A stretch of DNA of 64,000 nucleotides. It comes from Patescibacteria group bacterium. Lineage in GTDB: Bacteria; Patescibacteriota; Patescibacteriia; UM-FILTER-42-10. Positions 5,602 through 52,656 of this stretch are shown here, in pieces (the stretch's first letter is position 1; every line of letters begins with the position of its first letter). The stretch covers positions 25,007-89,006 of the forward strand of contig JBAYGC010000003.1 of the NCBI GenBank assembly GCA_041666845.1, read 5' to 3'. The notes beneath the pieces are model-generated. The model had not been told where the DNA came from. It did no database searches and saw only the letters and a program-made list of their open reading frames with translations. Made by a program: the position numbers and the translations under genes.

Positions 5602-5678
5602 CCCGTTAGAAATTCCTGTATTTAGTAATAAAATATATTCCCGTATCCCACCCGTTAGTAATGATAATTTCTAACGGG
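5602..5678 (-). promoter_or_regulatory. 5' leader of mltG carrying the inverted repeat CCCGTTAGAAATT ... AATTTCTAACGGG (plus an internal CCCGTTAG), ending directly at the ATG
   Basis: Half-sites at 5602-5614, 5651-5658 and 5666-5678; the same architecture is found at asnS (52565-52656). Confidence 0.45.
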
Positions 5679-5729
5679 ATTCATCCGATATTAATTTCTA
5701 GATTAATTATAAATGATATTCTCTAACGT

Positions 5730-6818
5730 TTATAGGTATTTTTCGTTCTCTTTGTTCTTCTGCAATTCTTCTACAATCTTCTTCGCTTCATCCGACCGTT
5801 CTCTGGGGCACACCAGCAGTGCGTCATCCGTATCAATAATCACCATGTCATCCAGACCAATGGTGGCAATAACTTTATCTTTATTTCCGTAGATCATGCA
5901 GTCGGTAGTGTCCATGGGTATTACATTTCCTTTTACTAAATTGTCACCCTGATTGTTTGGTAATAGATCTTTGATCGTATGCCATTTGCCCAGATCGCTC
6001 CAGCCGATTCGATTGGAAACACACATCGCTATTTTTTCTGCCTTGTCGGTGATGGCAGTTTCGATCGACATTTTTTCCAGCGCAGAATATATTTCAGCAA
6101 TCTTCTCTTCCTGTCCACCAAGTTTCAAAAGCTCCACAATCTCCCGGCACGCTTCCAGTATTGCCGGCTGGTATTTTTCAAATAATTTAATAATTGTTGA
6201 GAGTTGCCAGATGTACATGCCGGTGTGGTAGAAGTAACGGCCGGAAGCAATCAGCTCTTTGCAATAATCCAGATCCGGCTTCTCCACCCAGTCCGCAACT
6301 TTAAATATCGCTTCTTCCCCTTTTTCCTGCAGTACGTCTCCGGATTTAATATAACTGTATCCGGTGTCCGGGTAGTTCGGTTTGATCCCCGGCGTCATAA
6401 TGTATTCCGGATTTTCTTTCAGGAAAATTTCCGCGGTCTGAAGCAAAGTTCGGAAAGCTTCCGGGTCGGTGATGTAATCATCAGACGGCAAACTGGCGAC
6501 TACTTCATGATCCGAAAACCGCTCCGCGATCAGAACGCTCTCCAGACAAATCGCCGGTCCAGTATTCTTGCTGGCGGATTCCGGAATAATATTTTTTTCG
6601 GAAACATTCGGCAAATATTTTTTTACCAGATGCTTCACCGATTCATTGACTGAAATAAAAAGATCGTCCTCAATATTTATTAAAGGGGCGATTCTGTCTT
6701 GTGTGTCCTGAATTAAAGCTTTGTCGCTGGCGATTGCCTGAAACTGTTTCGGATTATTTTTTCTGCTGAGAGGCCACAGCCTGGTACCTACTCCGCCGGC
6801 GCGAATAACTATCTTCAT
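5730..6818 (-). CDS. manC: mannose-1-phosphate guanylyltransferase (sugar nucleotidyltransferase, GDP-mannose pyrophosphorylase-like)
   Basis: N-terminal IRAGGVGTRLWPLSR nucleotidyltransferase motif; 362 aa, ManC/CpsB-like. Confidence 0.7.
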   Translation of the reverse strand: MKIVIRAGGVGTRLWPLSRKNNPKQFQAIASDKALIQDTQDRIAPLINIEDDLFISVNESVKHLVKKYLPNVSEKNIIPESASKNTGPAICLESVLIAERFSDHEVVASLPSDDYITDPEAFRTLLQTAEIFLKENPEYIMTPGIKPNYPDTGYSYIKSGDVLQEKGEEAIFKVADWVEKPDLDYCKELIASGRYFYHTGMYIWQLSTIIKLFEKYQPAILEACREIVELLKLGGQEEKIAEIYSALEKMSIETAITDKAEKIAMCVSNRIGWSDLGKWHTIKDLLPNNQGDNLVKGNVIPMDTTDCMIYGNKDKVIATIGLDDMVIIDTDDALLVCPRERSDEAKKIVEELQKNKENEKYL

Positions 6819-6857
6819 GTGATTAGTTTAATTAGCAGTGAATAATTATTATTAATA

Positions 6858-6981
6858 AATTCTAAACCCTAAGCCCTAAATCCTAAATAAATTACAAACG
6901 GTATTGCTTTTCTCGATTTGTAAATTGCGATTTGAAATTTTGGATATTATTTGGAGTTTAGAATTTAGGATTTAGAATTTT
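6858..6981. repeat. imperfect ~30-bp inverted repeats built from degenerate CCCTAA/TCCTAAAT units flanking a nested palindrome (ATTACAAA..TTTGTAAT)
   Basis: aaattctaaaccctaagccctaaatcctaaat at 6858-6889 versus reverse complement of atttggagtttagaatttaggatttagaattt at 6950-6981. Lies in the intergenic region between pcm and manC. Confidence 0.4.
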
Positions 6982-6989
6982 TCAAAACA

Positions 6990-7616
6990 TTATCCTTCTC
7001 TATCAGAGATCAGCGGTACAAACTGGAAACCGGGATAACTTTTGGTTTTGATTTTATCCGGCGCCTGTTTTTCCACCACCACGATATCCTGCACGGCATC
7101 GCCGATCGGAATTACCAGTTTACCACCCACCTTCAATTGGTCAATCAGTGCCTGCGGAATTTCCCGCGCTGCCGCCGCCACGATTATTTTGTCATAAGGC
7201 GCGTATGCCCTCAGACCCTTCGACCCGTCACCGTACGTATGGGTGATATTGATAAATTTATATTTCTTAAGATTCTCTTCCCCGAATTTTTTCAGTTCTT
7301 CAATTCGCTCAATGGCGTACACGTGCCCCTGATCACCGACTATTTCAGCCAGTAGTGCGGTCTGCCAGCCGGACCCGGAACCCACATCCAGTATCCTTTC
7401 TCCTGCTTCCGGCTCCAAAACCTCCAACATAAAAGCCACCGTCATCGGCTGGGAGTTGGTTTGTCCATGCCCGATATGCAAAGGGGCGTTAACCGCCTCC
7501 TTGTCTTTCATGTTTTCCGGCAGAAAATCACGTCTTTTTACCCTATAAAAGGCATTAATTATCTCGGGATTACGCAAATAGCCCTGTCCAATCAGGTCTT
7601 TTACCAGGTTCTCCAT
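6990..7616 (-). CDS. pcm: protein-L-isoaspartate O-methyltransferase
   Basis: SAM-binding motif ILDVGSGSGWQTALLAEIVG and PCMT-like N-terminus (LIGQGYLRNPEI..FYRVKRRDFLP). The ORF extends to 7706, but the ATG at 7616 (MENLVKDL) fits PCMT family N-termini. Confidence 0.8.
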   Translation of the reverse strand: MENLVKDLIGQGYLRNPEIINAFYRVKRRDFLPENMKDKEAVNAPLHIGHGQTNSQPMTVAFMLEVLEPEAGERILDVGSGSGWQTALLAEIVGDQGHVYAIERIEELKKFGEENLKKYKFINITHTYGDGSKGLRAYAPYDKIIVAAAAREIPQALIDQLKVGGKLVIPIGDAVQDIVVVEKQAPDKIKTKSYPGFQFVPLISDREG

Positions 7617-7772
7617 GGTTGTTTTATGCATGAATATCATATTCATATGTATGCTTAGTTTATCATCTTTTCGTGAAAAATAGAAATAAAAGAAAAAGTT
7701 ATCCACAGGTCATCAATATTGGCTAATATATAGTTAAAATTAGCTATATTTATCCAGATCAAATCGATTATG

Positions 7773-7801
7773 TTGACATTTTATATATGTTGTGCCATAA
7801 T
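7773..7801 (+). promoter_or_regulatory. sigma70-like promoter P1 of the giant surface-protein gene (TTGACA-17-CATAAT)
   Basis: TTGACA 7773-7778, 17-nt spacer, CATAAT 7796-7801. Confidence 0.4.
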
Positions 7802-7804
7802 CTA

Positions 7805-7832
7805 TTGACAAATTTTGTAATTGTGCTATATA
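7805..7832 (+). promoter_or_regulatory. sigma70-like promoter P2 (TTGACA-16-TATATA with TG extension)
   Basis: TTGACA 7805-7810; tgcTATATA 7824-7832; about 100 nt upstream of the ATG at 7933. Confidence 0.4.
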
Positions 7833-7932
7833 TAGCATGTTACTAAAAATATAAAACTCTGCCTGGCGACCGCTAGAAGTTACCGGCAGTACTTGAAAAA
7901 TAAATAATCTAATCATTAGCACTAACCACACA

Positions 7933-10900
7933 ATGAACGCTAATCATTACAACTCGAACCCGAAGAAACGGGGGAAGTTTTATCGTGTCGTCAACATTAT
8001 TGTCATGACGGCTTTTTTATTTAATATGACCGCAACTCAGGGGCTTTTAATGCTGTCCCCTGCTCAAGCGCAGGCAACACAGGACAAATATACTCTGTGC
8101 CATGCTACAGGTAGCGATACTAACCCTTGGGTTAGGATTCATGTTCCAGAGTCTGCCTTACCCGCACACCTTGATGGAAATGGCACTCCCCTGGCAGGAC
8201 ATGAAGACGATGTATATTTAGGCTTGGATAATGCCGATCTACTGCAATGTCCCACACCACCAGTAAGCTGTCCGAATGTTTTTGGGGACAATTTTGAGAG
8301 TTATTCAGTAGGCACAATTCCATTACCCTGGTCGCAAAATTATGGGGTAACAATAGAAGATATAAATGGAACGCATGAAAAAATTGCAAAAATGAATTCC
8401 AGTGAAAGTCATGATGAAGAAAGAATGTGGACCACGATTGATACTTCAGGCCGTACTAATCTAAAACTGCGTTATGATCAAAAAACTGATGGTCTTGAAA
8501 GAAATGAGCAGGATGTTTTTACCTTAAAATACAAAATCAACAGTGAATCCAGTTGGAATGTATTGTACCAAACAGATGTTAATGACAGTTGGGATCATAT
8601 GGTCTTCAACTTACCTAATGCAAACCAAATCACTATTAGCTTTGGCCTACTAGGCACAAATGAAAACGATAAGGCGTTTGTTGATAATGTAACCTTATCC
8701 GGCTGTGTTGCAAACGTATGCGGTGACGAAACAGTTGGCGGTGACGAAGAATGCGATGATGGAAATGTAAATGACGGTGACGGATGCAGTGCAACTTGTA
8801 CTATTGAAACCTGCACTGACACAGATAATGATACAATCTGTGACGATATAGATAACTGCCCATCAATACCAAACCCAAGTCAAAACGATGCCGATGCTGA
8901 TGGTGTCGGTGATGCATGTGATATGTGCGCAGGTGCCGATGATGCATTAGATAATGAAGGTGATGGAATACCAAACGGTTGTGATAATTGTCCTTGGGAA
9001 CCAAACTGGGATCAAACAGACACAGATAACGATGGTGTAGGGGACGCGTGTGATGAACCGGTTTGCGGTGATGGCAATTTAGATGAACCACAAGAAGAAT
9101 GCGACGACGGAAATGGTGAAAATGGTGACGGATGTTCCGCACAATGTACATTAACCTATAATATCCAAGGACAGAAATGGAACGATGAAGACAATGACAG
9201 TTATTGGGATGATAATGAAAGTCCTCTTGCAGGAGTAGAGATAACATTAGATGGCGGAAATAGCGGAACAGTATACACAAATGCGAACGGTGAATACGAA
9301 TTTTCCGGTTTGCTTCCAAATAACTACACCGTTTGCGAAGTAGTTCAAGATGGATGGGAACAGTCGCTACCTGGCACGGGTTCAGGAGACTGTTACGAAA
9401 TAACACTGCCCGATGACGGTCAAACCACTTATAATTTTGGCAATCATCAGATAGATAATGTTACAATCGTCGCATATAAAATTGTCTGCACAGAAGAATC
9501 CGACCTACCTAACTGGGGAAATGGCGGAGAGAACATTACTGCGGCAACTGCCCAGAATTGGGTAGACAGCCACGATTCATGTGAATTTGAATCAGATTGG
9601 AATTTCCAATGGCGTGTAGATAGTGGCAACCCATACAATCCAGGCGATAATACTGGTGAATCTGTTGGCACCGATTGGACAACATTTGGTCTTACCGATG
9701 GAAATGGAATGACATCCACTGAAATTGATTTTGATCTCGCAGACAAATTTTGGTTCCGTGAAGTTATGCAGCCAGGATATATTCCTTTCACCTATAACGT
9801 TGCAGGAAATAACAGCAATAATGTTTCAGCCGAATTCTACTGCAGCTCAGATGTCTTAAACTATGACAACTTAGAATGGATTGATAATATGACTCCGGGC
9901 GAAACATATCATTGTGTTGCCTGGAACGTTCAAGCTCAACCGACTAAAGGTGACCTGACAATCTGTAAATACAATGATGTTGACAGCGATGGTGAATATT
10001 CCGACCTGATTGACACTCCTCTGCAATGGGAAATGAATGTTGAAGCTATGTCTGGAGTAGCGGATGGTAGTATTTGGGGTACCGGTACAAACAGCGAGAC
10101 CGGTTGTGTTACGCTTGCTGATATGTGGCTCGGAGAATATCGCGTCACTGAAACAGCTGTAGACGGTTGGTCACCAACCAATCCGGTAAGCGGAGATCAA
10201 TCAATAGAACTTACTGCCGAAAACCCAGATCAGACTGTTCGATTCCTAAACGAGCAGGTTTATGACCTGCATGGTTACAAATGGAATGATTTGGACGGTG
10301 ATAGATATCCTGATTGTAATCCGGTTAAAGGAGCTGAACTGACAACAGCCGCTACTCCCCCGCTGGATTGTGAACCAAGACTTTCAGGTTGGACAATCTT
10401 TATTGATGAAAATGAAAATGGAATTCTGGATGGCGAGGAACAGTCAACTATTACTTCAGATGATCCGGAACACTTAGGCTGGTATTGGTTCGAAGATCTC
10501 CCAGCCGGCGATTATCGTGTCTGTGAAGTACAGCAGTCTGACTGGGCACAAACCTATCCTCAAACCGCTGACGGCTGTCACACAGTAACACTCCCGACAA
10601 TGACCGAAGGTGACACCTGTATTTCAGAATATGCTCTCAATGGAGTAGATAACGCGCCTTCAATCTGTAACTTTGGTAATATTCACGACAAAGGCGATTT
10701 GACAATCGTTAAATACGATGATGATGAGAATCTGATGGCCGAAGTAGAATTCCAAATTGATGGTGAAACATACTGGACTAATGGTAATGGCGAAATCGTA
10801 CTAGAAGATATTTTGACCGGCTATCACATTGTAGAAGAAATGGGCATGGATAATTATACCTTTACATCTGTAACTGGTGATAATTGCACAAACAGCAATC

Positions 10901-13296
10901 CGTCAGCCGCAAATGTTGTGGAAGACGGAACAACCTGCACATTCACCAACACCCGCAATACTGGTGATGTGAGTGGTATGAAATATGAAGATTTGAACGG
11001 TAATGGAATCCGTGATTGCGCAATTCCTGCAAAAAGTCTTGGAATAATTAATGTAAATGATTCCGAAGATCCGGAAGTGTGTGAACCAGCGCTCCCCGGT
11101 TGGACAATCAATCTTGCTTTTAACGCATGTTCTGAAAACAGCTCTGACTACGACTTGAGCAATGATGGAGAACTAGATCTCTCAGACGTTGCTATGATGG
11201 CGCAGTATCTGGAAACACCAAATAATCCGCAGGGCGACATGAATGATGACGGTTTAACGAATCAAGCTGATTTCAATTGTTTTTCCGCCATATACACTGA
11301 CAGTTCTCTGCCGGCTATTGCTGATAAGTCTGACGTGACCGATGAAGATGGTACCTACAGCTTCAAAGGTCTGACCCCTGGATCTTACAACGTCTGGGAA
11401 ACACTAGATAATAATCCTGGCGATGCTCACGGGGGTTGGATTCAAACCAGTACGCCTGTTGTCCATACCGTATTAATCGGCGCCGGTGATGAAATAACCG
11501 GTGAAGACCAAAATTTCGGTAACCAATATGTCGGTTACTGCGGTGATGAGGTTGTGAACAATGGTGAAGAATGTGATTACAATAGTAGTTATGGAGTTCC
11601 TGAAAACTACCATTGTACTCAAGAGTGCCAATTGCAGGAAGATCCTTATTACTTAGTTGATGGTTATAAATATGAAGACTTAGATGGAAATGGCACTTGG
11701 AATGAAGCATATGAACAGCCACTAAACGGCTGGGAAATCTGTTATGCCTATGAACCATTGGACAGAGTAGAAGACATTGCATTCTCATTTGACTCCTTTG
11801 CGCTCGGAATTATGGAAGATACTGATAATTGCGTAATGACCGGCAGTGGCGAAGAATGGCCAGATGGTTATTATCAATTCAAATTCTACAACCCGGGGCA
11901 TGTTACTCTAACTGAAACACCACAGCCGGGATCTGGATATACCCAGACCGAACCTGTAGCCGGAGCACCTTGGGAAATAGAAATGGCGGAAAACCCTGAG
12001 TTACCGCAGTACAACTTCGGCAACCAGCCGGACTTCAGCGTTAATATTGAAAAATCAGCCAGCGTTACTACAATCGGACAAGCTGAGCAATTCGGTTATA
12101 CCATTAACTGGGGATTAACCGGGATAATAACTGCTGATCAAGTTATAATCACTGACACTCTACCCGCTGATGTTTCATTTGTCTCTGCAACAGACAGTGG
12201 AATTTATGACAGTGGTACGCATACCGTAGCTTGGACGCTCAATAATATTGCTCCGGGAACCACCGGTAGCTTCGGTGTAACTGTTCAAGCACTAAGTAAT
12301 GTGACTAACGGCGAGGAATTGTTAAATACCGTAGATATCTTGGGAACCAAATATCTGGAAGCTCCAGCCGAAGCCAGTGCATTAGCAGGTCCGGTACTTA
12401 CCAGAATTGACCGTTCCGACACAGCAAACGCAACTGTAACCGTAGTTGTTCCGGATGTTGCCGCTCCTCTACTGCAGATTACTAAAGATGCCAGCGTGGC
12501 TACGGCTGACGCCGGCGACACTGTAACCTATACTGTAGTCGTAACCAACGTTGGCTCTGCAAAAGCGGTAAATGTCATGGTTGATGATACCCTGCCTGCC
12601 GGAATGACCTTTGTGGACGGTGGCGGAACAACTGTGGCGTTAGTACTTGGTGATATTGAGATCGGGCAGTCCAAAACAACCACTTATGACGTGAAAATAG
12701 CGGATAACGCGACGTCCGGTTCTTATGAGAACTTAGCAGTCGCTTCTGCCGACAATCATGATGATATATCGGACTCCGCGATTGTCGAGGTTGAAAACCC
12801 GGTTGTTCTGGGTGAAACCACTGAAGCGGAATTGGCACTGATCAAAACCGCCGATGTTGAATACACCAACCCGGCCGGAACAGTGGAATACACGCTGACT
12901 GTAACCAATAACGGCACGGAAGACGCCCAAAATGTCGTCCTGACTGACCAATTACCGGACGGATTCGTATTTGAAGGCACAACTGATGTCGTAAAAGTGT
13001 GGAATTTCAGCACAATCGCTGTCGGTGCAGCCGAAACCGTTACCTATAAGGCAACCGTAAACGCTAACACTACAGCAGGAATGTACGAAAACGTGGCATT
13101 AGCCAAAGCGGACAATTCCGACGATGCCGGTGCTTCTGCTATAGTAGAAGTACGTGCCGTATCGGTCTTGGGTGCGCTGGTCGATACCGGTACCACCACC
13201 CGCGACTACCTCCTGTATATCGGCGGCGTGATGCTGGTGATCTCTGGAATCTGGTTTTTTACCAGAGAAAAGAACCTGTCACACCACTCCAAGTAG
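7933..13296 (+). CDS. giant secreted surface protein (1787 aa): signal peptide, Cys-rich repeat, TSP type-3 Ca-binding repeats, SdrD/Cna B-like domains, dockerin-like repeat, DUF11 repeats, C-terminal LVDTG sorting-like signal plus TM plus basic tail
   Basis: Signal peptide ..LLMLSPAQA; C-x-DGN-x-DGDGCS repeat; D-x-D-x-DG-x-x-D-x-C/DNCP repeats; multiple [14 protein letters not shown] SdrD-B-like modules; [16 protein letters not shown] dockerin-like; [29 protein letters not shown]11 repeats; C-terminus [32 protein letters not shown]. Confidence 0.8.
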
Positions 13297-13316
13297 GCTA
13301 GAATCTTCGGACTTTA

Positions 13317-13357
13317 AACACCCCCACACCCATTAATGGGTTTGGGGGTGTTTTGAT
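13317..13357 (+). terminator. rho-independent terminator of the first giant gene
   Basis: aaCACCCCCACACCC-atta-aTGGGTTTGGGGGTGtttt hairpin plus T-run, 20 nt after the stop. Confidence 0.7.
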
Positions 13358-13703
13358 TTACCGGATTAATCTACTTGCCAAAATTAGATGAAATATGGTC
13401 TAGCCTATTGACAAAAAAACTGTAAACTGTAAGATGTAGGAGCTATAAATAGTTCTTTAGGCGTTGCACATTATCATGGAGGAAGAACACGAGCTTATGC
13501 TAGTGTTTGGGGGGAATAGAAAACCAACAAAAGGTTATAAAAAAACCAAAATAAAAGAGTACTAGAAGCATACACCTTTGAAAATCGCTATATTTAGCGA
13601 ATTTGTAACTTGTTGTTGGTTTTTTGTATTCATAAAAAACCTTGCAAATTAGCACATTTAATATGAAATAATTCCCTCTTGATAGGGACTAGAAACAAGA
13701 ATA

Positions 13704-13804
13704 GTTCCTGAGCGCCTGTGGTGAGCACAGTCGAACCAAAGTCGAAGGACAATATAACAAATACTTCGACAGAGTTTATCCCGATGAATATCGGGACTCA
13801 GGGG
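13704..13804 (+). repeat. copy C of the palindromic repeat element, 30 nt upstream of the second giant gene
   Basis: aGTTCCTGAGCGcctgtgGTGAGcacaGTCGAAccaaaGTCGAAGGACaat..aCTTCGAcag..gACTCAGGGGATAATt. Confidence 0.6.
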
Positions 13805-13833
13805 ATAATTAAAAAATAATTTACCAAAATACA

Positions 13834-18320: not shown

Positions 18321-18360
18321 AGATCTTATCTCAACCTCAATTAATCGGTTCGGGGGTTGA

Positions 18361-18417
18361 CCCCGTTAGAGGATTTCCTCTAACGGGGTTGACAAATATT
18401 TTATTATATGGTAATAT
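18361..18417 (+). promoter_or_regulatory. perfect 12-bp inverted repeat CCCCGTTAGAGG-ATTT-CCTCTAACGGGG abutting a sigma70-like promoter (-35 TTGACA 18389-18394, 17-nt spacer, -10 TAATAT 18412-18417) of the receiver gene; flanked by direct GGGGTTGAC repeats
   Basis: Seen directly in sequence. The palindrome shares its CCCGTTAG/CTAACGGG half-sites with the mltG and asnS leaders. Confidence 0.5.
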
Positions 18418-20589: not shown

Positions 20590-21006
20590 ATGAATTTCGT
20601 TAAAATAGTTCTCATTCCACTAAGCATTGCTCTGGTGGTACAATTCTCAAAGACAATCCCGGATACTTTCCGTGGCAAATTTCGATGGAAGAATATTTTG
20701 AATTACGGCGGTATGCCATCGGGCCATGGAGCACTAGTTGCTTCACTATGTACAATGGTCGGTATCGTTATGGGTATTGACACAGTAGAATTCGGAATTG
20801 CATGCGTTATGTCCGTAATCGTCCTAAGGGATTCCGTAGGGCTCCGGAGAATAATCGGTAAACAGGGCGAAGCGATCAATGATTTAAATCAGATAAATAA
20901 AAAAGTTCCTGCTTTGGAGGAACGCGTCGGTCATACTCCGTTTGAAGTAATGATGGGAGTTATGGTCGGAATCGGATTGTCTTTCCTGCTGAATTCTGTT
21001 GTATAA
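20590..21006 (+). CDS. divergent PAP2-family protein (DUF212/YuiD-like acid phosphatase-related membrane protein)
   Basis: GGMPSGHGALV motif characteristic of divergent PAP2; 138 aa, 3-4 TM. Promoter TGcTATAAT ends 7 nt before the ATG, so the mRNA may be leaderless. Confidence 0.55.
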   Translation: MNFVKIVLIPLSIALVVQFSKTIPDTFRGKFRWKNILNYGGMPSGHGALVASLCTMVGIVMGIDTVEFGIACVMSVIVLRDSVGLRRIIGKQGEAINDLNQINKKVPALEERVGHTPFEVMMGVMVGIGLSFLLNSVV

Positions 21007-40205: not shown

Positions 40206-40907
40206 TTATTTATCTTTGGTTTCTGCTTTCTTTTCCTTGCCCTTTTCCGCTTCAGTACCTTCAGCTTCAGCACCTTCAGCTTTAACTTCCTCCGCACCTT
40301 CCGGTACCTTGACGGTTATTTCTTCATTCAGTGCTTCCAGTTCCGCATCGGTCCTTGGCGCCTCTACCAATACGACTGCTTCATCTGGCTTGTCCATAAT
40401 TGTTACGTTTTCTGGAACATTCAAGTCTTTGACGTGAATAACAGTTTCAAAATCGGTAATTTTCGATATATCAACTTCTAATTCATGGATTAAGTCGCTT
40501 GGCAAACACTGGATCTCTAAATGATCAATGCTCTTAACCAATACCCCACCCATTTCTTTTACTGCCGGTGATTCGCCGATGAATTTAATATGCACTTCCG
40601 CGGTTACCTTCTCTTTCATATTGATTTGCCTGAAATCAACGTGAATCGGCAGATCCGTTTCTGGATCAAACTGGACATCCTGCACGAGAACCTTAATCGT
40701 GCTCCCATCATCAACCTTAAGATCAACCAATGTGCTACTACCAGCTTCTTCAAATACTTTTTTAAACGTCAAAAAATCAAGCTCTAATGATTGAGTTTCA
40801 ATACTGGGTCCATATACAACCGCCGGAATAATTTTTTGCTCGCGCAGTTTTTTTACGTCTTTCCCCGTTAGTGTTCTTTTTTTTGCATTTAGAATCAAGG
40901 TGTCCAT
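40206..40907 (-). CDS. rplY: 50S ribosomal protein L25 / general stress protein Ctc (with acidic-Lys C-terminal tail)
   Basis: L25-type N-terminal beta-barrel (LNAKKRTLTGKDVKKLREQKIIPAVVYG) plus a Ctc-type second domain. Confidence 0.75.
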   Translation of the reverse strand: MDTLILNAKKRTLTGKDVKKLREQKIIPAVVYGPSIETQSLELDFLTFKKVFEEAGSSTLVDLKVDDGSTIKVLVQDVQFDPETDLPIHVDFRQINMKEKVTAEVHIKFIGESPAVKEMGGVLVKSIDHLEIQCLPSDLIHELEVDISKITDFETVIHVKDLNVPENVTIMDKPDEAVVLVEAPRTDAELEALNEEITVKVPEGAEEVKAEGAEAEGTEAEKGKEKKAETKDK

Positions 40908-40941
40908 CTTATTCCTTTCGTGATTATGATTACATTATTAT

Positions 40942-41289: not shown

Positions 41290-41393
41290 TCTGTATTTTT
41301 TATGTATTCCGATTATATCACAAATTTTGTGATAAAGTCAACCCCGTTTTAGACGGGGTATAAGGGTGTTTGGTATCACTTTTAGTGAAGTAA

Positions 41394-41949: not shown

Positions 41950-41953
41950 ACTC

Positions 41954-42028
41954 TGGTACCGCCTAGGGGAATCGAACCCCTGTTGCCAGGATGAGAACCT
42001 GGCGTCCTAACCACTAGACGAAGGCGGC
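41954..42028 (-). tRNA. tRNA-Glu (anticodon CUC)
   Basis: GCCGCCT-TC-GTCT-AGTGGTT-AGGAC-G-CCAGG-TTCTCAT-CCTGG-CAAC-AGGGG-TTCGATT-CCCCT-AGGCGGT-A-CCA; 75 nt. Confidence 0.85.
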
Positions 42029-42078
42029 ACAAAAGGCAGGGAGTAGTTTAACACACCCTGCCTTATAATTTCAAGTTT

Positions 42079-43086: not shown

Positions 43087-43096
43087 TTTTTATATA

Positions 43097-43891: not shown

Positions 43892-43970
43892 ATGTATAAA
43901 AAATAATAATTGATATTAGCTCTTAGCCGAACGTTAAGTTCAGCATACAATAATGGTTACCTTTTGTAAA

Positions 43971-44900: not shown

Positions 44901-44902
44901 AC

Positions 44903-45481
44903 TTATGCCTGTTCTTCTTTTACCTTTTCAACACTCTCTTCCTCATCATCTTCATGCAATAGCGCTTCCAGATTGTTATCGCTGTTTAACTTTTCATAAT
45001 CCGGCAATTCTTTTACATCATTTATCCCCAAGAATCTCATGAAATCAAAAGTAATCCGATAGTATGTCAGCTTGTCCTTGCTATTCTCTTCACCTTCGAT
45101 CAAACCCTTGATCAATAAATTGCGCAAAATCAAACTGCAATTAACTCCACGGATCATTTCCAGTTCCCCCTTGGTAACCGGCGCCCGGTAAGCGATGATG
45201 GTTAACGTTTCAAGCGACGGCTTGGTTAACTCGCCCGTTTGTTCGTCTTTCAGGTATTCTCGTACAACACCGGCATTATCGGGACTTGATACCAGCTCAA
45301 ATTTACTGCCATCACGCATCAGAGCAATTCCCTGCTTCCCTCCGTTATATTTTGCCATCAGCTCATGCAATGCTTCTTCAACATCTTTTTTTTCTTTTTT
45401 TACAATTTCTGCCAGTTTGTTGGCAGTGAGCGGTTTGTTCGCAATGAATAATAGGCTCTCAATCTCCGAAGATAGTGACAT
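44903..45481 (-). CDS. scpB: segregation and condensation protein B
   Basis: Tandem winged-helix pattern (ESLLFIANKPLT.. / ETLTIIAYRAPVTKGELEMIRGVN). Confidence 0.75.
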   Translation of the reverse strand: MSLSSEIESLLFIANKPLTANKLAEIVKKEKKDVEEALHELMAKYNGGKQGIALMRDGSKFELVSSPDNAGVVREYLKDEQTGELTKPSLETLTIIAYRAPVTKGELEMIRGVNCSLILRNLLIKGLIEGEENSKDKLTYYRITFDFMRFLGINDVKELPDYEKLNSDNNLEALLHEDDEEESVEKVKEEQA

Positions 45482-45498
45482 TCTATTAATATTAATAT

Positions 45499-46215
45499 TT
45501 ATATGTCTTCTAAATTATTATTTTGTTCAATATATATTTCCTCAAACACACTTTCCTGCATAACAACCACTGAACGCTGTTTTACTAATTCAAGTAACGC
45601 TAAAAAAGTAACAATCACTTCTGTTTTATTCTTCGACTGAGTTAGCAAATTTTTAAAACTCAACCTGGCTTCCGTAGAAATCGCGGTTTTGATTTGAGAA
45701 ATTTTTTCCTGGATGGAAACAGTTCTTTTAATCATTTCCTGTGGCAGTTTCACAATCGGCTCTATTCTTTCCAGCACTTCTTTAAAATAATCGCGTAGAT
45801 CTTTTGCGCTAATGCCTTGCGGAGGATTAAAAATCGGTTCAACTGTACGGACGCGGGAAGACTCTCTGAAATATGAGAATTTCTTTTTGCCGATCATTTT
45901 CTGGATATGTTTCGAAGCATCATAATATATCCGGTAGATTTTCAACTGCTTTTCCAAATCACCGGCTTCTTCTTCACCGTCTAATTGCAGTGACGGTAAT
46001 AATAACTTCGATTTGATCAGCAACAGCTTGGCAGCCACCACTAAAAAATCAGCCAGATCACCCGGTGGCAGATCCTGTACTTGTTCAATATATGCCAGAT
46101 ATTGTTCCGCAATATTGGCCAGTGATACTTCCGTTATGTCCAGCTCCTCTTTTTCGATCAATTGCAATAAAAGCGGTAACGGCCCCTGAAATTGTTCTAA
46201 TTCTATTTTATACAT
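45499..46215 (-). CDS. scpA: segregation and condensation protein A
   Basis: N-terminal FQGPLPLLLQLIEKEELDITEVSLANIAEQYLAYI ScpA signature; upstream of scpB. Confidence 0.8.
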   Translation of the reverse strand: MYKIELEQFQGPLPLLLQLIEKEELDITEVSLANIAEQYLAYIEQVQDLPPGDLADFLVVAAKLLLIKSKLLLPSLQLDGEEEAGDLEKQLKIYRIYYDASKHIQKMIGKKKFSYFRESSRVRTVEPIFNPPQGISAKDLRDYFKEVLERIEPIVKLPQEMIKRTVSIQEKISQIKTAISTEARLSFKNLLTQSKNKTEVIVTFLALLELVKQRSVVVMQESVFEEIYIEQNNNLEDI

Positions 46216-46267
46216 TTCTGAATTTACTAAATAAAAAACCCGAAGTACGATTCTTCAAACCTGTGAA

Positions 46268-46843
46268 TCATCTTTTCTTTTTGGTTTTGCCTTTTTTAGG
46301 AGCCTTTTTTGCCACTCTTTTTTTCTTGGCTTTCTTTTTGTTTTTAGACTGCTTCGGTTTTATAATGATATCGGACATGAATCTTTTGGCAAAAATTCCC
46401 TGAATCGGATCAACCATTTTTACATAATCTTTCACTTTCATCGCAATCGATTCTTTGAAAGAACCGGACCCCAATAAAACTCTAGTGGATTTATTCAGCG
46501 ATTTATCCATTACTACTTTTGTTTTATGGATAAAACCAAACGGGGTGATTGCTCCCGGTTTTACCTTGAATACTTTCTGCATCACATTTTCTTTGGCAAT
46601 TGTGATCTTTTTTGCATTCAATATTTTTTTCAGTTTGGTAAGATCCAGACGGTAATGCGCTGGCAGAACAACTAGGTAATATTCTTTTTCTGTTTTCACC
46701 AGCAATGTCTTGGCAATTTCACTTAATTTCAGTTTTAGCGTATTAGCCAAGTCAAAAGCAGTATAAACTTTTTTGTGTTCTATGATTTCGTATTTTGTCT
46801 TATTCTCATCCAGAGATCCAAGCAACTTTTTTGAAATTGGCAT
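46268..46843 (-). CDS. YbaK/ProX-type aminoacyl-tRNA deacylase domain protein with Lys-rich C-terminal tail
   Basis: YbaK-like core (..HKKVYTAFDLANTL....AKTLLVK......VVLPA..RLDLTKL) plus a KKKAKKKRVAKKAPKKGKTKKKR tail. Confidence 0.5.
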   Translation of the reverse strand: MPISKKLLGSLDENKTKYEIIEHKKVYTAFDLANTLKLKLSEIAKTLLVKTEKEYYLVVLPAHYRLDLTKLKKILNAKKITIAKENVMQKVFKVKPGAITPFGFIHKTKVVMDKSLNKSTRVLLGSGSFKESIAMKVKDYVKMVDPIQGIFAKRFMSDIIIKPKQSKNKKKAKKKRVAKKAPKKGKTKKKR

Positions 46844-46861
46844 ATTATTAATTTGTTATTA

Positions 46862-47170
46862 TTATTTTTCTTCTACCAGATTAATCTCAATTTCAATCCC
46901 CTTCTGATGTTCAGCAATCCAATTATAGATGAAGGCCATAACAAATCCAGAAACCATCCCCATTACGTACGACATTAAGATAAATCCAAAGAATCCTGCG
47001 ACACCAAAGATCATCCAGGACGAACCGGAATCGATATAACCGAACCCACCGGAAAATAGTAGCATCATTCCAAAATAAGGTACGCTCACAACGATAGAAA
47101 GTGCAACTGTTATCAAGCTGGTCATTCTAGCCAGGGACCAGGGATTAATTTTAGATACTTCGTATTTCAT
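46862..47170 (-). CDS. hypothetical membrane protein (3 TM)
   Basis: 102-aa hydrophobic ORF. Confidence 0.4.
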   Translation of the reverse strand: MKYEVSKINPWSLARMTSLITVALSIVVSVPYFGMMLLFSGGFGYIDSGSSWMIFGVAGFFGFILMSYVMGMVSGFVMAFIYNWIAEHQKGIEIEINLVEEK

Positions 47171-47181
47171 TTGATTTTGGA

Positions 47182-47775
47182 TTATGAATTGTTTCTGTTG
47201 ACTACCCTCTTTTGCATAAATACGGTCAGTGAGGTAAATATTACCACCAAAACACCCAAAATTATGTAGATCGCACTATTCGGGAACTGATAACTGATTA
47301 CGACCATGATTTCGATTAACAAATGGAATAGCATCCAGAACGCAAACACCATATAACCGTACGTAACGACAAACCAATTGGGCTGCCTCTTTTTCACGTT
47401 AAACATATAATACATCAGGAATGTCAGCAGAAATACCGGGATAATGAAGGCGGAATGAATTAACAATTTGTACATGATATAATCCGCTTTCTGGGTTGTC
47501 GGATAGTAAATCTTTGCTTGAGAAAGCCCGGAACGTTCATAGGACAAACTTGCATTATAATAATTCGTGCCGGTTGTACCACTTGAATATTCAGAGACAA
47601 TCGGGTTGGCAGCTTTATTTAAGTCAAAGATTATTCGCTCGCCAAGCAGAATAATTACGATTGCCATAATAATCGTAAATACAACACCTAGGGCAGAAAC
47701 TGATTTTTGCTTTTTCTGCTTAATGTTTGCCGCTTTTGGCTTTGCGGTTTCTTTTAAAATATCTTTTGGAGTCAT
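47182..47775 (-). CDS. hypothetical membrane protein (4-5 TM)
   Basis: 197-aa hydrophobic ORF. Confidence 0.4.
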   Translation of the reverse strand: MTPKDILKETAKPKAANIKQKKQKSVSALGVVFTIIMAIVIILLGERIIFDLNKAANPIVSEYSSGTTGTNYYNASLSYERSGLSQAKIYYPTTQKADYIMYKLLIHSAFIIPVFLLTFLMYYMFNVKKRQPNWFVVTYGYMVFAFWMLFHLLIEIMVVISYQFPNSAIYIILGVLVVIFTSLTVFMQKRVVNRNNS

Positions 47776-47795
47776 ATATTCCCCCGTATGATTAG

Positions 47796-49544
47796 TTAAT
47801 TTTTAAATTTTGATTGATTGTTCAATAAGAATAAAATTAAAAACGTCAGGACTAGACCAATGGCAGTCACAATATAAAATACCACTTTTCGTCCGCTGTC
47901 TTCAGTGCCCGGCGCGTTAACCGGATCATTATTGTCCGCATTTCTGAAAAAAAGATCTTCCGTCATTGCATCATATGCCATTGTACTGCTTAGTTTGGTA
48001 AGGAAATATTTATCCGCGGAAGGATTAATCCAGTAATTACCCTGGTCATTCAAAGCCAGAGCTTCTATTTCTGACTTTTTAATCCAACCCGCGTAGTCCG
48101 TATTAAAGTTTGGCAATTCTTTTTTACTGCTGTCTATAACATAAAGGATAATCGACGCTGTATTGCTGTAATATTGGTCATAAGCCAGATAATCACTGCC
48201 TGCGTAAACTAAATAGTCACCAGATACCTCGTCTGCTAATGATGAATCAAAATGCGCAAGGAACATTGTGCTATTTTCCACTGCTAACGCTTCTCCGGCG
48301 TTCATTTTATTGTAATTATCATTAATCAAATCAACAGAATTGGCAACATTATAGATCGCGAACTCATCAACAATAGAATCAATCGAACGGTTGTCGTATT
48401 CCCCGGAACCGATATATAGATTATCTCCGGAAAAATTACTGATACCAAATTGCTTGGTGCTTTCTGCGGTAAGCGGTACAGATGATCCGTTTAAGTAGAA
48501 AGATGGAAGCTTGTCCTTTTGCCAGGTTAAGGCGACTTGTTGCCAGCTATTTACATCCAGAGCAAAGTTGCCGGAAATCCAGGTATCAGTCGTATAATCC
48601 GCATCATTATATGTTGAAAGAGTATAGTGGTATCCGTCAGCTGTAATATTGGAGTTCAGATCAAAACGGAAAAGAAGGCTATTGCTGTCACCACCCCTAA
48701 CTGTTGCGATGTTTACTGTCTTAGTTTCTTCAGCAGACCAATTTGGTTTGATCCAAGCTTCCAATGTTCCGCCGTTACTGCTGATCGCATTATCTGCGGT
48801 CATAGTTAACTTATCTTCATTTTCTAATAGTACCCCTTCGTTGACAACACCGGCAGTATATTCAACACCGACATTATTTTCCGGACTACTGGTTACTGAA
48901 GAAATCTTCATTGGATAAACTAAATTCTCTGTCTCAAAAGAAATGGCGACCGGCACAGCATGACCGGTTTTCAATTGCTGAATAACACTGTCCGACTGCA
49001 GGCTTTTGGTATCAATCTTCATTGCCACAAAATACCACCCGTTATCAATATAACTGTTCAATATGTAGCTGGCCGATTCCGGGTAGCTATAACCGTTATC
49101 ATTCAGCCATGTCGTAAGTGCATCCTTGTCTGTTGCTGAAATTGTAGTTACTTCATAATACTCAATCTGTTGTGTGTCGATAATCGTCACCTGCTTCTCA
49201 GCATCTGTTCCGCTTAAAGGCATCCCGCCGGACATCATATTATCATCATATCCGTAGTAAATCTGGGTCAGCTGATCCAATGACGTAAACAACTCGTCTG
49301 ATCCTTTAGTAATCGTCGGTTTGGACGGTGTCGGAATTACCCAACCAAAATTGTCCGCATCGCCCTGAAAGGTAATAGACACCACCATTGTTTCCACCCC
49401 ACCGTCATAAAAAATAACTGCTTTTTGGGCAGTTTCTTGAACCCAATAATCAGGCTGTGGCATTACCATACCGTCAGCTGTCGAAAGCTGTGGCAGGAAT
49501 AAGGATAATACGACCAATACATTGAAAATCTTTTTTAGAAACAT
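47796..49544 (-). CDS. secreted protein with concanavalin/LamG-like lectin domain and C-terminal TM anchor
   Basis: Signal peptide; AISSNGGTLEAWIKPNW...LNGSSV resembles LamG-like jelly-roll; C-terminal hydrophobic helix. Confidence 0.35.
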   Translation of the reverse strand: MFLKKIFNVLVVLSLFLPQLSTADGMVMPQPDYWVQETAQKAVIFYDGGVETMVVSITFQGDADNFGWVIPTPSKPTITKGSDELFTSLDQLTQIYYGYDDNMMSGGMPLSGTDAEKQVTIIDTQQIEYYEVTTISATDKDALTTWLNDNGYSYPESASYILNSYIDNGWYFVAMKIDTKSLQSDSVIQQLKTGHAVPVAISFETENLVYPMKISSVTSSPENNVGVEYTAGVVNEGVLLENEDKLTMTADNAISSNGGTLEAWIKPNWSAEETKTVNIATVRGGDSNSLLFRFDLNSNITADGYHYTLSTYNDADYTTDTWISGNFALDVNSWQQVALTWQKDKLPSFYLNGSSVPLTAESTKQFGISNFSGDNLYIGSGEYDNRSIDSIVDEFAIYNVANSVDLINDNYNKMNAGEALAVENSTMFLAHFDSSLADEVSGDYLVYAGSDYLAYDQYYSNTASIILYVIDSSKKELPNFNTDYAGWIKKSEIEALALNDQGNYWINPSADKYFLTKLSSTMAYDAMTEDLFFRNADNNDPVNAPGTEDSGRKVVFYIVTAIGLVLTFLILFLLNNQSKFKN

Positions 49545-49558
49545 ATTTTTGAAATAAA

Positions 49559-49867
49559 TTATTTTTTATTCTTAAATGGCAAAGACTGCTGTTCACCTAA
49601 AAGCTTCATAGTTTCTTTCTTGCCTTTTCTGGTCAGCTGCACTTCTTCAATAAACCATTTCTTCGGCGTTCTCCTACCGTAGCCGATTAACAGACCCTTA
49701 TCAATCAGACGTTCAATGCTTTTTGTCACTATCCCCTGCCGGTCAATTGTCTTGGGGGCGTTTTTTTTCTTTTCATAAAACTTCAAGAGATGTTTGCGCT
49801 TACTTCTCCCCTTGATATTGAGCAAGCTTAGAAGTATATACCTTTGAAGTTGAGATACTCTCATCAA
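49559..49867 (-). CDS. hypothetical basic protein (possible winged-helix)
   Basis: 102 aa, K/R-rich. Confidence 0.3.
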   Translation of the reverse strand: MMRVSQLQRYILLSLLNIKGRSKRKHLLKFYEKKKNAPKTIDRQGIVTKSIERLIDKGLLIGYGRRTPKKWFIEEVQLTRKGKKETMKLLGEQQSLPFKNKK

Positions 49868-51268
49868 TCACTTTTTTAAATTCAATTTAATATGCAGGTC
49901 ATCCAACTGCTGTTCACTGACCGCTGATGGTGAGTTCATGAGCAGGTCACGATTATCACCTGTTTTCGGAAATGCTACTACCTCCCGGACATTGGTCCGG
50001 TTAAGTAGAATCATCAACAGCCGGTCAATACCCGGAGCAATTCCGCCGTGTGGAGGTACACCGTACTGAAAAGCTTCTAATAGATGCCCGAATTGTTCGT
50101 GAGCTTCTGCATTGGAAATTCCAACTAATTCCAGAATTTTTTCCTGTATTTTATGGTCATAAATCCTCAAACTGCCACCGCCGACTTCATATCCGTTTAG
50201 AACCAAATCATGCTGCCAGGAACGCGCTTTCAGCGGTTCATACTCCAGTAATGGTAAATCTTCTGTCCGCGGTGCGGTAAAAATATGATGAAACGGTACA
50301 TGCTTTCCGTCTTTCAGCTCCGGTTCAAAATACGGCCAGTCGACAATAAAGCAAAACGCCAGCTCGTTTGGATCATTTTTATTTGTTCTAATGTCCGGCT
50401 TATCGTTTCCGTATTTTTCCATTGCTTCTTTATAAGTAATGCGCGGCCATGGAGAAAAGGTAATCTTTTTTTCCGGAAACAATTCCGTAACCAGCTTAGT
50501 AAACATTCTTTCCGTCAGATTCAGTATCTCATCCTGACTCATAAAAGACATTTCCATATCCAGCTGGTAAAACTGGTCTGGGGCGCGGTCGGAACGTGAA
50601 TCTTCATCACGAAAACACGGAGCAATTTGGAAATACTTTTCAAATCCGGCCACCATTAGTAATTGCTTGTATTGTTGTGGCGATTGCGGTAGAGCGTAAA
50701 ACTTGCCCGGATACACTCTGGAAGGAACCAGATAATCCCTAGCACCTTCAGGAGTAGATTTACCCATAATCGGCGTTTCTATTTCGATAAACCCTTCTGT
50801 ATGCAAGAAATCCCTGATATATTTATTGAATTTGGAACGCATAATCACCATCTTTTTGTTTGAATCTCTGCGCAGATCCAAGTATCGGTATTTATAACGA
50901 ATTTCCTCCGCCACTTCCTCTTTATCATTTTCCACTATTTCAAACGGAGGGGTCTTTGATTCGGTAAGAATATTTAATTCCAACGCTTCTATCTCAACTT
51001 TGCCGGTCGGCATATTTTTGTTGACCAGTTTCTCCGGTCGCTCATTAACCTGTCCGATTATTTCCACCACAAATTCCGGTCGAAGCTCTTTCGCCTTATC
51101 CACTAATTCATCATTGCCCGGCAGAAAAACCACCTGTACGATTCCTGATACGTCGCGCAAATCAACAAAGACCATTTTACCCATGCGGCGCGCCGATTGA
51201 ACCCAGCCGTTAAGTTTTACTTTCTTGCCGATATGACCAGCAGTTTCCACGGTTAAAATGCGTTTCAT
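49868..51268 (-). CDS. aspS: aspartyl-tRNA synthetase, short archaeal/eukaryal-type (no GAD insertion domain)
   Basis: N-terminal OB fold; class II motif 2 FRDEDSRSDRAPDQFYQLDME (FRDEDLRADRQPEFTQ-like) and motif 3 GGGSLRIY..HGGIAPGIDRLLM; only 466 aa. Confidence 0.75.
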   Translation of the reverse strand: MKRILTVETAGHIGKKVKLNGWVQSARRMGKMVFVDLRDVSGIVQVVFLPGNDELVDKAKELRPEFVVEIIGQVNERPEKLVNKNMPTGKVEIEALELNILTESKTPPFEIVENDKEEVAEEIRYKYRYLDLRRDSNKKMVIMRSKFNKYIRDFLHTEGFIEIETPIMGKSTPEGARDYLVPSRVYPGKFYALPQSPQQYKQLLMVAGFEKYFQIAPCFRDEDSRSDRAPDQFYQLDMEMSFMSQDEILNLTERMFTKLVTELFPEKKITFSPWPRITYKEAMEKYGNDKPDIRTNKNDPNELAFCFIVDWPYFEPELKDGKHVPFHHIFTAPRTEDLPLLEYEPLKARSWQHDLVLNGYEVGGGSLRIYDHKIQEKILELVGISNAEAHEQFGHLLEAFQYGVPPHGGIAPGIDRLLMILLNRTNVREVVAFPKTGDNRDLLMNSPSAVSEQQLDDLHIKLNLKK

Positions 51269-51271
51269 ATG

Positions 51272-52564
51272 CTATGGTTTTAATCTATTTAATAATCTCG
51301 GAAAAGGAATAGTTTCACGAACATGGTCCAGTCCGCAGATCCAGGCGACAGTCCGTTCCAGACCGATGCCGAAACCGGCGTGCGGTACGGAACCGAAGCG
51401 GCGCAGATCTACATACCATTCGAAATCTTTTTGAGACAGTTTATGTTCCTTTATTCTTTGTTCCAACAATTCGAGATCCCAGATTCTTTCCGACCCGCCG
51501 ATAATCTCACCGTACCCTTCAGGAGCCAACATATCGTCACACAATACTACATTTGGATCTTCCGGATCCGGTTGCATATAAAAAGCTTTGATCTTGGTCG
51601 GATAATGAGTGACAAACACCGGCATATCAAATTGTTTCATCAGCATCGTTTCATCATCCGCTCCCAAGTCCTCCCCCGCTTTGATGTCTGAACCCAATTC
51701 CTGCAATTTTTTCACCACCTCCGAATAACGCATCCGGGGGAAAGGCGCTTTAACTTTTTCCAGGAATTTTGTATCTCTCTCCAAAAGTGCCAGTTCAGTT
51801 TGCATGGATTTTAGAATATTGGATACCACGTAGGAAACCAATTTTTCCTGTACATTCAAATTTTCTTCGTGTTGCATAAAAGCGACCTCGGCATCCAACA
51901 TCCAGAATTCCATCATGTGCCTCCGGGTTTTGGATTTTTCCGCGCGGAATGTCGGTCCAAAATCATAAACCTTTCCCAGCGACATCGCCATCGCTTCCAA
52001 ATAAAGCTGACCGGATTGAGAAAGATATGCCGTCTCTTCAAAATACTGGGTTGAAAACAGAGTAGTAGTCCCTTCACATGCGGTAGGCGTCAGAATCGGG
52101 CTGTCGGTCAGGGTAAATCCTTCATTTCTGAAAAATTCCCGCATCAACCAGATTATTTCATTACGCACCTTCATGATTGCTACCTGCCTTTCGGATCTCA
52201 GCCACAGATGGCGATTATCCAGAAGAAAATCAACCCCGTGTTCTTTCTTGGAAATTGGGTATTCCAGAGCCACTTGCAGTACCTTAATGTCTTTCACCTG
52301 CATTTCGTAGCCGTATGGTGAACGTTTATCTTCATTAACCACCCCGGTAACCACCACACTTGATTCCATTGTCAGCTTTTCACAGGCTACCCAAGCTTCT
52401 TCCGAAACCTCATTTTTACTGATAACCGCCTGAATCCGGCCGGTTCCGTCTCTTAACTGCAAAAAGAATATCTTGCCGGATGAGCGAAAATTAAAAACCC
52501 AGGACTGTAGTTGCACGTCCTGACCCAGATACTTTGAAACTTCCGATATACTGATTTTTTTCAT
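51272..52564 (-). CDS. asnS: asparaginyl-tRNA synthetase
   Basis: Motif 2 [24 protein letters not shown] (AsnRS-specific FRAE.S.T.RH) and motif 3 [16 protein letters not shown]. Start at ATG 52564 (MKKISIS); the ORF-track start at 52585 corresponds to a GTG. Confidence 0.85.
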
Positions 52565-52656
52565 CCCGTTAGAAATTATTGCCACAATATTTCTGAAATT
52601 TTTCCCCTTTTCTCCCCTTAAATATATCCCGTTTTTGCTTTTTAATTTCTAACGGG
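52565..52656 (-). promoter_or_regulatory. 5' leader of asnS with inverted repeat CCCGTTAGAAATT (52644-52656, minus orientation) ... AATTTCTAACGGG (52565-52577) ending at the ATG
   Basis: Identical half-sites and geometry to the mltG leader (5602-5678). Confidence 0.45.

Follow-up and report, generated by a model that had tools for sequence, protein, structure and literature searches.

Three sites in a 64-kb stretch of Patescibacteria DNA (the window, by which we mean all 64,000 nucleotides analyzed) carry the same inverted repeat: two directly precede the start codons of mltG and asnS, and the third adjoins the promoter of a gene for a CheY-like receiver. [quoted passage not shown] A mobile palindrome family had been named as the alternative in an earlier sequence-only reading of this DNA, and it is this alternative that filled and empty sites, 4-bp duplications, and the anatomy of the family support. 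The units are small and noncoding, share terminal inverted repeats, show the duplication when filled and empty sites are compared, and occur as dispersed, polymorphic copies, as do MITEs. Comparison with related loci demonstrates, at the level of sequence, insertion, a 4-bp target duplication, 13-bp ends, presence/absence polymorphism, a wide distribution, and the rebuilding of a start codon or -35 box.

The motif that first drew attention, CCCGTTAG, has eight exact matches on the two strands of the window (GC content, 40.8%) against an expected 0.96, a count attained in none of 100 dinucleotide-preserving shuffles. Seven of the eight fall within the three inverted-repeat units. The remaining match (40864-40871) lies inside the L25/Ctc coding sequence (codons ...RTLTGK...), has neither a partner arm nor a duplication, and is taken as chance because about one chance match is expected. 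The mltG unit, ATCCCGTTAGAAATT, is a perfect inverted repeat of 15 bp whose arms occupy 5600-5614 and 5666-5680 across a gap of 51 nt; the asnS unit is a perfect 16-bp inverted repeat, ATCCCGTTAGAAATTA, with arms at 52563-52578 and 52643-52658 and a gap of 64 nt; and the receiver-gene unit is a perfect palindrome with 14-bp arms, ACCCCGTTAGAGGA / TCCTCTAACGGGGT, at 18360-18389. Half-site spacings within these units are 10, 12, 61, or 76 nt. Both mltG (4552..5601) and asnS are on the minus strand, where the proximal arm adjoins ATGAAAAAAAT and 24 nt are identical between the two start junctions. The ATG at 52564 was taken as the true start of asnS, since every orthologue has a length of 430 aa. 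The shared repeat that the sequence-only reading had described was thus confirmed in every detail, coordinates included, and the sequence likewise bears out its observation that the proximal half-site abuts both start codons.

The decisive comparison is that of the asnS locus with its relatives. In the window, the element (copy 2, 94 bp, minus strand) occupies 52564..52657 with its perfect 16-bp inverted repeat, and ends in an A that serves as the first base of the asnS start codon (ATG, 52564..52562). In three relatives (L130, L132, and L134, with AsnS 96%, 93%, and 87% identical), the site is empty and reads ...TGCTATAGTAGGGnCTGAATT ATGGAAAAAATCAG, that is, ...GAATT ATGGAAAAAATCAG. The filled site, found in the window and in L129 (AsnS 96% identical), reads GAATT ATGGA T-CCCGTTAG...CTAACGGG-A TGGA or TGAA AAAAATCAG. 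On this alignment, asnS presents a clean insertion that duplicated TGGA. The distal duplication (52658..52661, TCCA on the plus strand and TGGA on the minus strand) forms, together with T52662, the old ATG (52662..52660). The gene-proximal duplication (52560..52563) is TGAA on the minus strand; ancestrally it was TGGA, which L129 keeps, and the window has undergone one substitution since the insertion. The old ATG now opens an upstream open reading frame (uORF) of six codons, MDPVRN followed by a stop, which in L129 extends to about 22 codons. The asnS promoter (TTGCAA, 17 nt, TGcTATAGT; 52675..52704, minus strand) is conserved in all five relatives, which places the whole of copy 2 in the 5' untranslated region (UTR). 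In the empty-site relatives, the leader is about 8 nt long. A terminator-like hairpin (52742-52719) lies upstream of the promoter.

The mltG locus tells a similar story. Copy 1 (79 bp, 5601..5679, minus strand, perfect 15-bp inverted repeat) has the minus-strand sequence T-CCCGTTAGAAATT...AATTTCTAACGGG-A, the last base of which doubles as the first base of the ATG from which mltG now starts (5601..5599). The gene-proximal duplication (5597..5600, TTCA on the plus strand and TGAA on the minus strand) supplies the TG of that start codon, and the distal duplication (5680..5683) forms, with T5684, the old ATG (5684..5682, minus strand), which now opens a uORF of nine codons, MNPVRNYHY followed by a stop. 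An empty site is seen in L006 (MltG 75% identical): ...TAATCTAGAAAAATATTAAGG ATGAAG (...AAGG ATGAAG...). The window segment TAATCTAGAAATTAATATCGG ATGAAT, which stands before the element, is the homologue of the L006 start region, and for this reason the ATG 6 nt before the element is identified as the old start codon. The window upstream segment TAATCTAGAAATTAATATCGGATGAAT aligns with the start regions of both L005 and L006. In L005 (MltG 81% identical), the mltG leader (1975-2003) reads TAATCTAGATATTTATAACGGGATGAAAAAAAT, which is the window sequence minus a deletion between AGAAATT/GGAATT repeats, with a remnant of the right end left in place; this site gives the impression of a lone right end left behind by the element, not of a site that was never occupied. 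A decayed and further rearranged copy, TCCGTTAG...CTAACAGG, is present in L003 (MltG 86% identical).

The extra half-site that the sequence-only reading had noticed at mltG is real (5651..5658, plus strand); it reads CTAACGGG on the minus strand and lies 12 nt past the left end of the element. Alignment shows that the mltG and asnS copies and their counterparts in L003 and L129 have homologous interiors with a common order, namely the left end, an A-rich stretch, (T)AACGGGATAT, a variable part, and the right end. A degenerate counterpart of the internal half-site (AACGGG or AGCGGG) occurs in copy 2, in the L003 copy, and in the L129 copy. The shared subfamily interior explains the extra half-site, which, judging from these alignments, is a piece of that interior and no separate operator.

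Copy 3, at the receiver gene, is the minimal form. It spans 28 bp (18361..18388), reads C-CCCGTTAGAGG-ATTT-CCTCTAACGGG-G, and consists of two 13-bp ends around a 2-nt center. The left TTGA duplication is at 18357..18360, and the right one (18389..18392) provides the first four bases of the -35 element TTGACA (18389-18394), so that the palindrome touches the -35 box and is flanked by GTTGAC on either side, as had been reported from the sequence. The promoter itself (TTGACA, 17 nt, TGgTAATAT, with the -10 box TAATAT at 18412-18417) is near consensus and is conserved across all relatives compared, whether or not the element is present. The site is filled in L257 (84%), where the copy has two substitutions, and the element is missing from L255 (88%) and from L259/L260 (82%). 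A Saccharibacteria metagenome-assembled genome (MAG; L169) contains a short copy that is nearly identical, GTTGAC flanks included. As a separate observation, a GC-rich palindrome, AAACACCCCCACACCCATTAATGGGTTTGGGGGTGTTT (13316-13353), lies 3' of a gene for a 1787-aa surface protein, and a related palindrome, CCCACCCCCACACTTCTAGAAGTGTGGGGGTGGG, takes the place of the receiver-gene element in L255 (about 1110-1150); these palindromes may be a terminator family or another repeat family.

Scanning sequence databases for the same ends placed the three copies in a much larger family. A metagenome scan for CCCGTTAG-N50-80-CTAACGGG returned at least 120 loci, and a genome scan for the short form of the pattern (N4-34) again returned at least 120; together they yielded more than 200 family members. 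The raw counts are uninformative, as thousands of chance matches to 16 specified bases are expected in such databases, and the informative point is that the listed matches share features beyond the search pattern, namely end pairing, base 9, and a flank rule. The consensus element is 5'-Y-CCCGTTAGA-NNN ... NNN-TCTAACGGG-R-3', with a variable interior of 2 to about 120 nt. Among the matches listed, the ninth base is A in 192 of 212 elements. Pairing across positions -1 and +8 to +11 is 76 to 94%, and Watson-Crick pairing at -1, +9, +10, and +11 reaches 92%, 88%, 87%, and 76% (shuffles, 51%, 45%, 50%, and 37%) before dropping to background (27%) at +12, which makes the terminal inverted repeat exactly 13 bp long. 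Positions 10 to 12 of the ends hold 19 different triplets.

The flank rule is equally specific. Among the matches listed, an exact 4-nt direct repeat flanks 78 elements, and in 75 of these the terminal Y and R bases adjoining the core are complementary (C:G in about 75% of cases and T:A in about 23%). The duplications are of the form YNNR, mostly TNNA (TTCA, TAAA, TTTA, TGAA, TTGA, TCAA, and TGGA), with a second class, CNNG (CGAG, CTTG, and CAAG), in the genome set; TTAA is rare (1 of 78), and there is a weak outer target preference, R/TNNA/Y. We also considered a 5-bp duplication with an extra complementary base and a 6-bp duplication and rejected both, because the base outside the 4-nt repeat is mismatched on either side in 21 of the 78 elements; a 4-bp duplication is accordingly favored. 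The three window copies obey the family rule exactly, with TGAA at mltG, TGGA at asnS, and TTGA at the receiver gene. Elements of the family range from 26 to 135 bp (79, 94, and 28 bp in the window, all noncoding), and no relationship links the interiors of different subfamilies; some elements are nested or in tandem, and half elements were also found. Copy density is three in the 64-kb window and up to four or five per locus elsewhere (L047 and L127). Hosts with all hallmarks include, within the Patescibacteria, Saccharibacteria, Paceibacterota, and Uhr-, Jorgensen-, Giovannoni-, Komeili-, Falkow-, and Sungiibacteria, and beyond them many Omnitrophota, Nitrospirota, Nitrospinota, Desulfobacterota (including Syntrophaceae), and Planctomycetota.

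The family appears to be undescribed. A gathering-threshold scan of the whole window found no relevant Rfam family, and scans of the leaders at E<=1 gave chance eukaryotic matches only. A literature string search for CCCGTTAG, CTAACGGG, and their RNA forms retrieved only primers and unrelated sequences, and the literature on MITEs together with CPR, Omnitrophota, or Parcubacteria, the coverage of which is incomplete, held no description of it.

The placement of family members relative to genes is far from random. Of 230 listed elements, 48 (21%) directly precede the start of an open reading frame (ORF), 28 of them an ATG and 20 a GTG; the corresponding figures are 1.9% for random positions and 5.6% for RTNNA sites as a whole. 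The old start codon persists in 37 of the 48, 6 nt ahead of the left end. If the element has C..G termini and enters an ATGAA start, the junction becomes GTGAA and the ATG start is turned into GTG, which accounts for the 20 GTG cases (for example, L015, L022, and L026). Elements in contig L047 adjoin the starts of rpmE, prmC, and gmk. This start-site bias may reflect a target preference, or it may reflect a filter of tolerated sites in very compact genomes.

Other members lie inside genes. Of 159 listed elements, 77 (48%) have a total insert length (core + 2 + 4) divisible by 3, and 23 of 24 intragenic copies (whose reading frames stay open for 40 codons or more to either side) are both multiples of 3 and free of stops. 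Such copies are translated as xPVR...SNGx or xPLE...LTGx. Examples are gyrA (L037, 4162-4227), with the insert at 267-290 and the Pfam DNA_topoisoIV match at 45-509; lipA (L027, 11313-11393), with the insert within the Pfam Radical_SAM match; and murD (L043, for which 9739-9768 and 8377-8451 are listed), with a 12-aa insert, NPVRNQKSSNGV, within the Pfam Mur_ligase_C match. Further in-frame, stop-free copies were found at the N terminus of murG, in a ferredoxin, and in other ORFs (the listed loci include L043 and L080, 2008-2073 and 3141-3209). The window copies are all intergenic, so that in-frame insertion into genes is a feature of the family elsewhere.

These observations suggest a simple course of events. 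The element inserted at A/TGAA/A in the mltG start, at A/TGGA/A in the asnS start, and at G/TTGA/CA in the -35 box of the receiver gene, presumably moved in trans by an enzyme recognizing the 13-bp ends. The terminal purine and the duplicated tetranucleotide restore ATGAA, ATGGA, or GTTGACA at the gene-proximal junction, and because the start codon or -35 box is rebuilt in this way, the gene or promoter survives the insertion. At mltG and asnS, the old ATG remains upstream and opens the 6- or 9-codon uORF running into the left arm, and in the mRNA, the arms would pair to form a 15- to 16-bp stem holding the AU of the true AUG. The predicted leader hairpins are stable (-24.1 kcal/mol, z = -3.0, for mltG; -28.6 kcal/mol, z = -5.3, for asnS). 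Transcription of asnS would start from its conserved promoter, with the old AUG lying close to the 5' end of the transcript (about 8 nt away), and ribosomes translating the uORF, or some other melting of the stem, would expose the real AUG of asnS and mltG. Given the arrangement of the sequence, it is plausible that translation of the uORF opens the start-codon stem. A simple promoter scan of the gene strand detected no outward promoter inside the asnS or mltG copy.

Several points weigh against interpreting the sites as members of a transposable element family. Among the 1048 ORFs of about 250 loci (about 1.7 Mb), neither a transposase nor an autonomous element bearing these ends came to light: pairs of ends 300 to 6000 bp apart enclosed housekeeping genes only, and clustering of the 1048 ORFs revealed no transposase family. 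An exact duplication is missing from roughly half of the elements scanned, which could be due to decay, nesting, or chance matches. At 28 bp, an element is too short to be bent for classical double-strand cut-and-paste transposition; the 26- to 29-bp forms may be in situ deletion products, or they may move as single-stranded hairpins. Finally, the window stems are perfect while the copies in L003 and L257 are decayed, and recent activity, gene conversion, or some selection could be responsible. A bolder version of the transposition reading, which we hold only tentatively and think on the whole unlikely, would have a cross-phylum, ultra-small palindromic family (13-bp ends, sizes down to 26 to 28 bp) moved via a hairpin intermediate or by a host or phage enzyme rather than by a classical insertion sequence (IS) transposase. 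Such a family would prefer start codons, with ATG or GTG rebuilt, and the frames of essential genes in streamlined bacteria (Patescibacteria and Omnitrophota), and the uORF and the hairpin at the start would create translational control de novo in near-leaderless genomes lacking Shine-Dalgarno sequences.

The sequence-only reading had favored a dedicated DNA- or RNA-binding regulator, with a regulon linking cell wall, translation, and signaling. Put in explicit form, a dimeric transcription factor would bind the CCCGTTAG/CTAACGGG half-sites and co-regulate these genes, and one can see why the idea suggested itself: the 8-mer is strongly over-represented in the window, and the receiver palindrome adjoins the -35 box, a typical position for an activator or a repressor. 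We nevertheless regard it as highly improbable. The motif is missing from most orthologous leaders, an outcome that the sequence-only reading had itself named as a refutation, the putative operators being gone from three of four asnS relatives and from the receiver gene in L255 and L259 while the promoters are conserved. The half-site spacing given above is inconsistent for an operator, and so is the position relative to the promoter, asnS having the motif in its 5' UTR and the receiver gene having it upstream of its -35 box. Identical units with target duplications, moreover, occur beside and inside hundreds of unrelated genes in several phyla. Nor do we give any credence to chance, to a low-complexity repeat, or to generic terminator-like hairpins lacking a common origin: the genome is AT rich and has many other intergenic inverted repeats, but the shuffles never reach the observed count, the two start junctions share their 24 nt, the mltG and asnS interiors are homologous, and hundreds of members elsewhere have the same ends and follow the same duplication rule.

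A subtler rival accepts the transposon origin and supposes that the leaders have since been exapted as RNA switches, the stem hiding the start until it is opened by an alternative pairing of the left arm with the internal half-site or by translation of the uORF, so that mltG and asnS would be under control of the ermC or thermosensor kind. Very stable stems that include the AU of the AUG would suit such a device, as would the lack of Shine-Dalgarno sequences and the very short leaders, which should make structure at the AUG matter; the old 5' AUG opens a uORF through the left arm, the left-arm, internal, and right-arm half-sites of mltG permit two alternative pairings, and the stems are perfect in the window while relatives' copies have decayed. 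Against this, the element is not conserved across orthologues and the interiors are unrelated between family members; the uORF has a different length in L129 than in the window, and the asnS copy has a degenerate form of the internal half-site. The receiver-gene copy, being upstream of the promoter, can have no effect within that mRNA; the hairpin seems to have been lost by deletion from L005, a hint that it is dispensable or costly; and the leaders have no Rfam match. On balance we consider exaptation improbable. The suggestion in the sequence-only reading that leader pairing occludes the start thus holds in part: the 15- to 16-bp stem does include the AU of the AUG, but it would be a by-product of insertion and not a conserved device.

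Three other models were tried and set aside. Translational bypassing or an intron does not fit, as the distances from old to new ATG are 83 and 98 nt, neither a multiple of 3, and the uORFs end in stops; because the empty sites are clean, a DNA insertion is sufficient. For a serine or tyrosine recombinase att site or an integron attC site, the GTTAGA/TCTAAC core agrees with the R'/R'' consensus of attC, but its order is reversed and the units are not long enough. An element of the IS200/IS605 type, which carries its own cleavage pentamer, is at odds with the occurrence of identical arms next to different flanks (TGAA, TGGA, and TTGA) and with an asnS flank that is the native target.

Recognizing the three sites as transposon insertions removes a false regulon, since mltG, asnS, and the receiver gene are linked only by the landing of a transposon before each of them. 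It also documents that mobile DNA persists in very reduced genomes with tiny intergenic spaces, where an element can occupy the very position of a start codon or a -35 box and still leave it intact because TNNA is duplicated and the end is a purine. There are practical consequences as well. Gene calling is confounded by wrong starts, N-terminal extensions (MNPVRN...), and ATG-to-GTG changes, and peptide inserts that would otherwise go unexplained are added to proteins from MAGs. That Patescibacteria, Omnitrophota, Nitrospirota, Desulfobacterota, and Planctomycetota all carry one and the same 13-bp end suggests that it has spread horizontally between bacteria that live together, often as symbionts.

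The window has other features that deserve mention. Its genes lack Shine-Dalgarno sequences, and several have a -10 box 6 to 9 nt before the ATG (TATAAT-like and 6 to 7 nt away at starts such as those at 20590 and 60996), which suggests that their mRNAs are leaderless or near-leaderless. The pyrH leader contains an unrelated perfect 15-bp inverted repeat, ACTCTAAACAAATTC / GAATTTGTTTAGAGT (4420-4434 / 4529-4543), around 94 nt with two internal hairpins. This repeat is also present in L003, with an extra nested hairpin; the sequence differs in L005, and L006 has no repeat. From this pattern, it is probably another insertion-type palindromic element. Between the PCMT-like and manC-like genes lies a long imperfect inverted repeat (6839-6985; 47-nt arms, 74% complementary) with runs of TTAGGG/TTTAGG-like heptamers (ttaggatttagggcttagggtttagaat). 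A ribosomal protein L10 leader (Rfam RF00557, 57.9 bits; 3547-3664) stands upstream of rplJ-rplL, as expected, and seven tRNA genes were found.

How the family relates to known mobile elements can be judged from its ends, its duplications, and its behavior. The canonical 13-bp piggyBac end, CCCTAGAAAGATA, resembles CCCCGTTAGAAAT. Terminal repeats of piggyBac elements start with CCCTC, CCCTT, or CCCAT, the duplication is TTAA with variants TAAA and TCAA, and IS1380 transposases are the prokaryotic outgroup to piggyBac (PMC10813416). The 4-bp T-N-N-A duplication and the short CCC... ends of our family are reminiscent of this group, a likeness that serves as a lead only; unlike in piggyBac, TTAA is rare here (1 of 78), and no transposase of the piggyBac/IS1380 type was found near any copy. 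The very short hairpin repeats also recall repetitive extragenic palindromes (REP) and bacterial interspersed mosaic elements (BIME) with their REP-associated tyrosine transposases (RAYT) and the palindromes derived from IS200/IS605 elements, and mobility as a single-stranded hairpin would suit a 28-bp element. Those elements, in contrast, make no duplication, insert by a fixed tetra- or pentanucleotide, and are extragenic, whereas the duplication in our family varies among copies with identical arms (TGAA, TGGA, and TTGA).

Within genes, the closest parallel is with the Rickettsia palindromic elements (RPEs), palindromic selfish DNA found in frame in unrelated, often essential genes and translated as a peptide insert (Ogata et al. 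2000, as summarized in PMC10969869). Members of our family are likewise in frame in gyrA, lipA, and murD, and 23 of 24 intragenic copies have lengths that are multiples of 3. RPEs, as they are portrayed in that summary, are about 100 to 150 bp long, are confined to Rickettsia, and have conserved peptides; our family, in contrast, conserves only the ends (PVR...SNG or PLE...LTG), goes down to 36 nt with the duplication counted in, and is found in other phyla (Patescibacteria, Omnitrophota, and others). We therefore describe the family as RPE-like in its behavior inside genes and claim no membership, the likeness being one of behavior only. More generally, the family takes its place beside the bacterial MITEs, which include the Correia elements (CREE) of Neisseria, ERIC, RUP, and Nezha (reviewed in PMC10969869). 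Like them, its members are small and noncoding, have terminal inverted repeats, a short duplication, many copies, and presence/absence polymorphism, insert next to genes, yield co-transcribed hairpins, and can create or preserve promoter or start signals. They differ from known MITEs in their ends (Y-CCCGTTAGA), in sizes down to 26 to 29 bp, in having no known parent IS, in sharing the same 13-bp end across several phyla and not within one genus, and in the very frequent insertion at start codons, with the ATG or GTG rebuilt.

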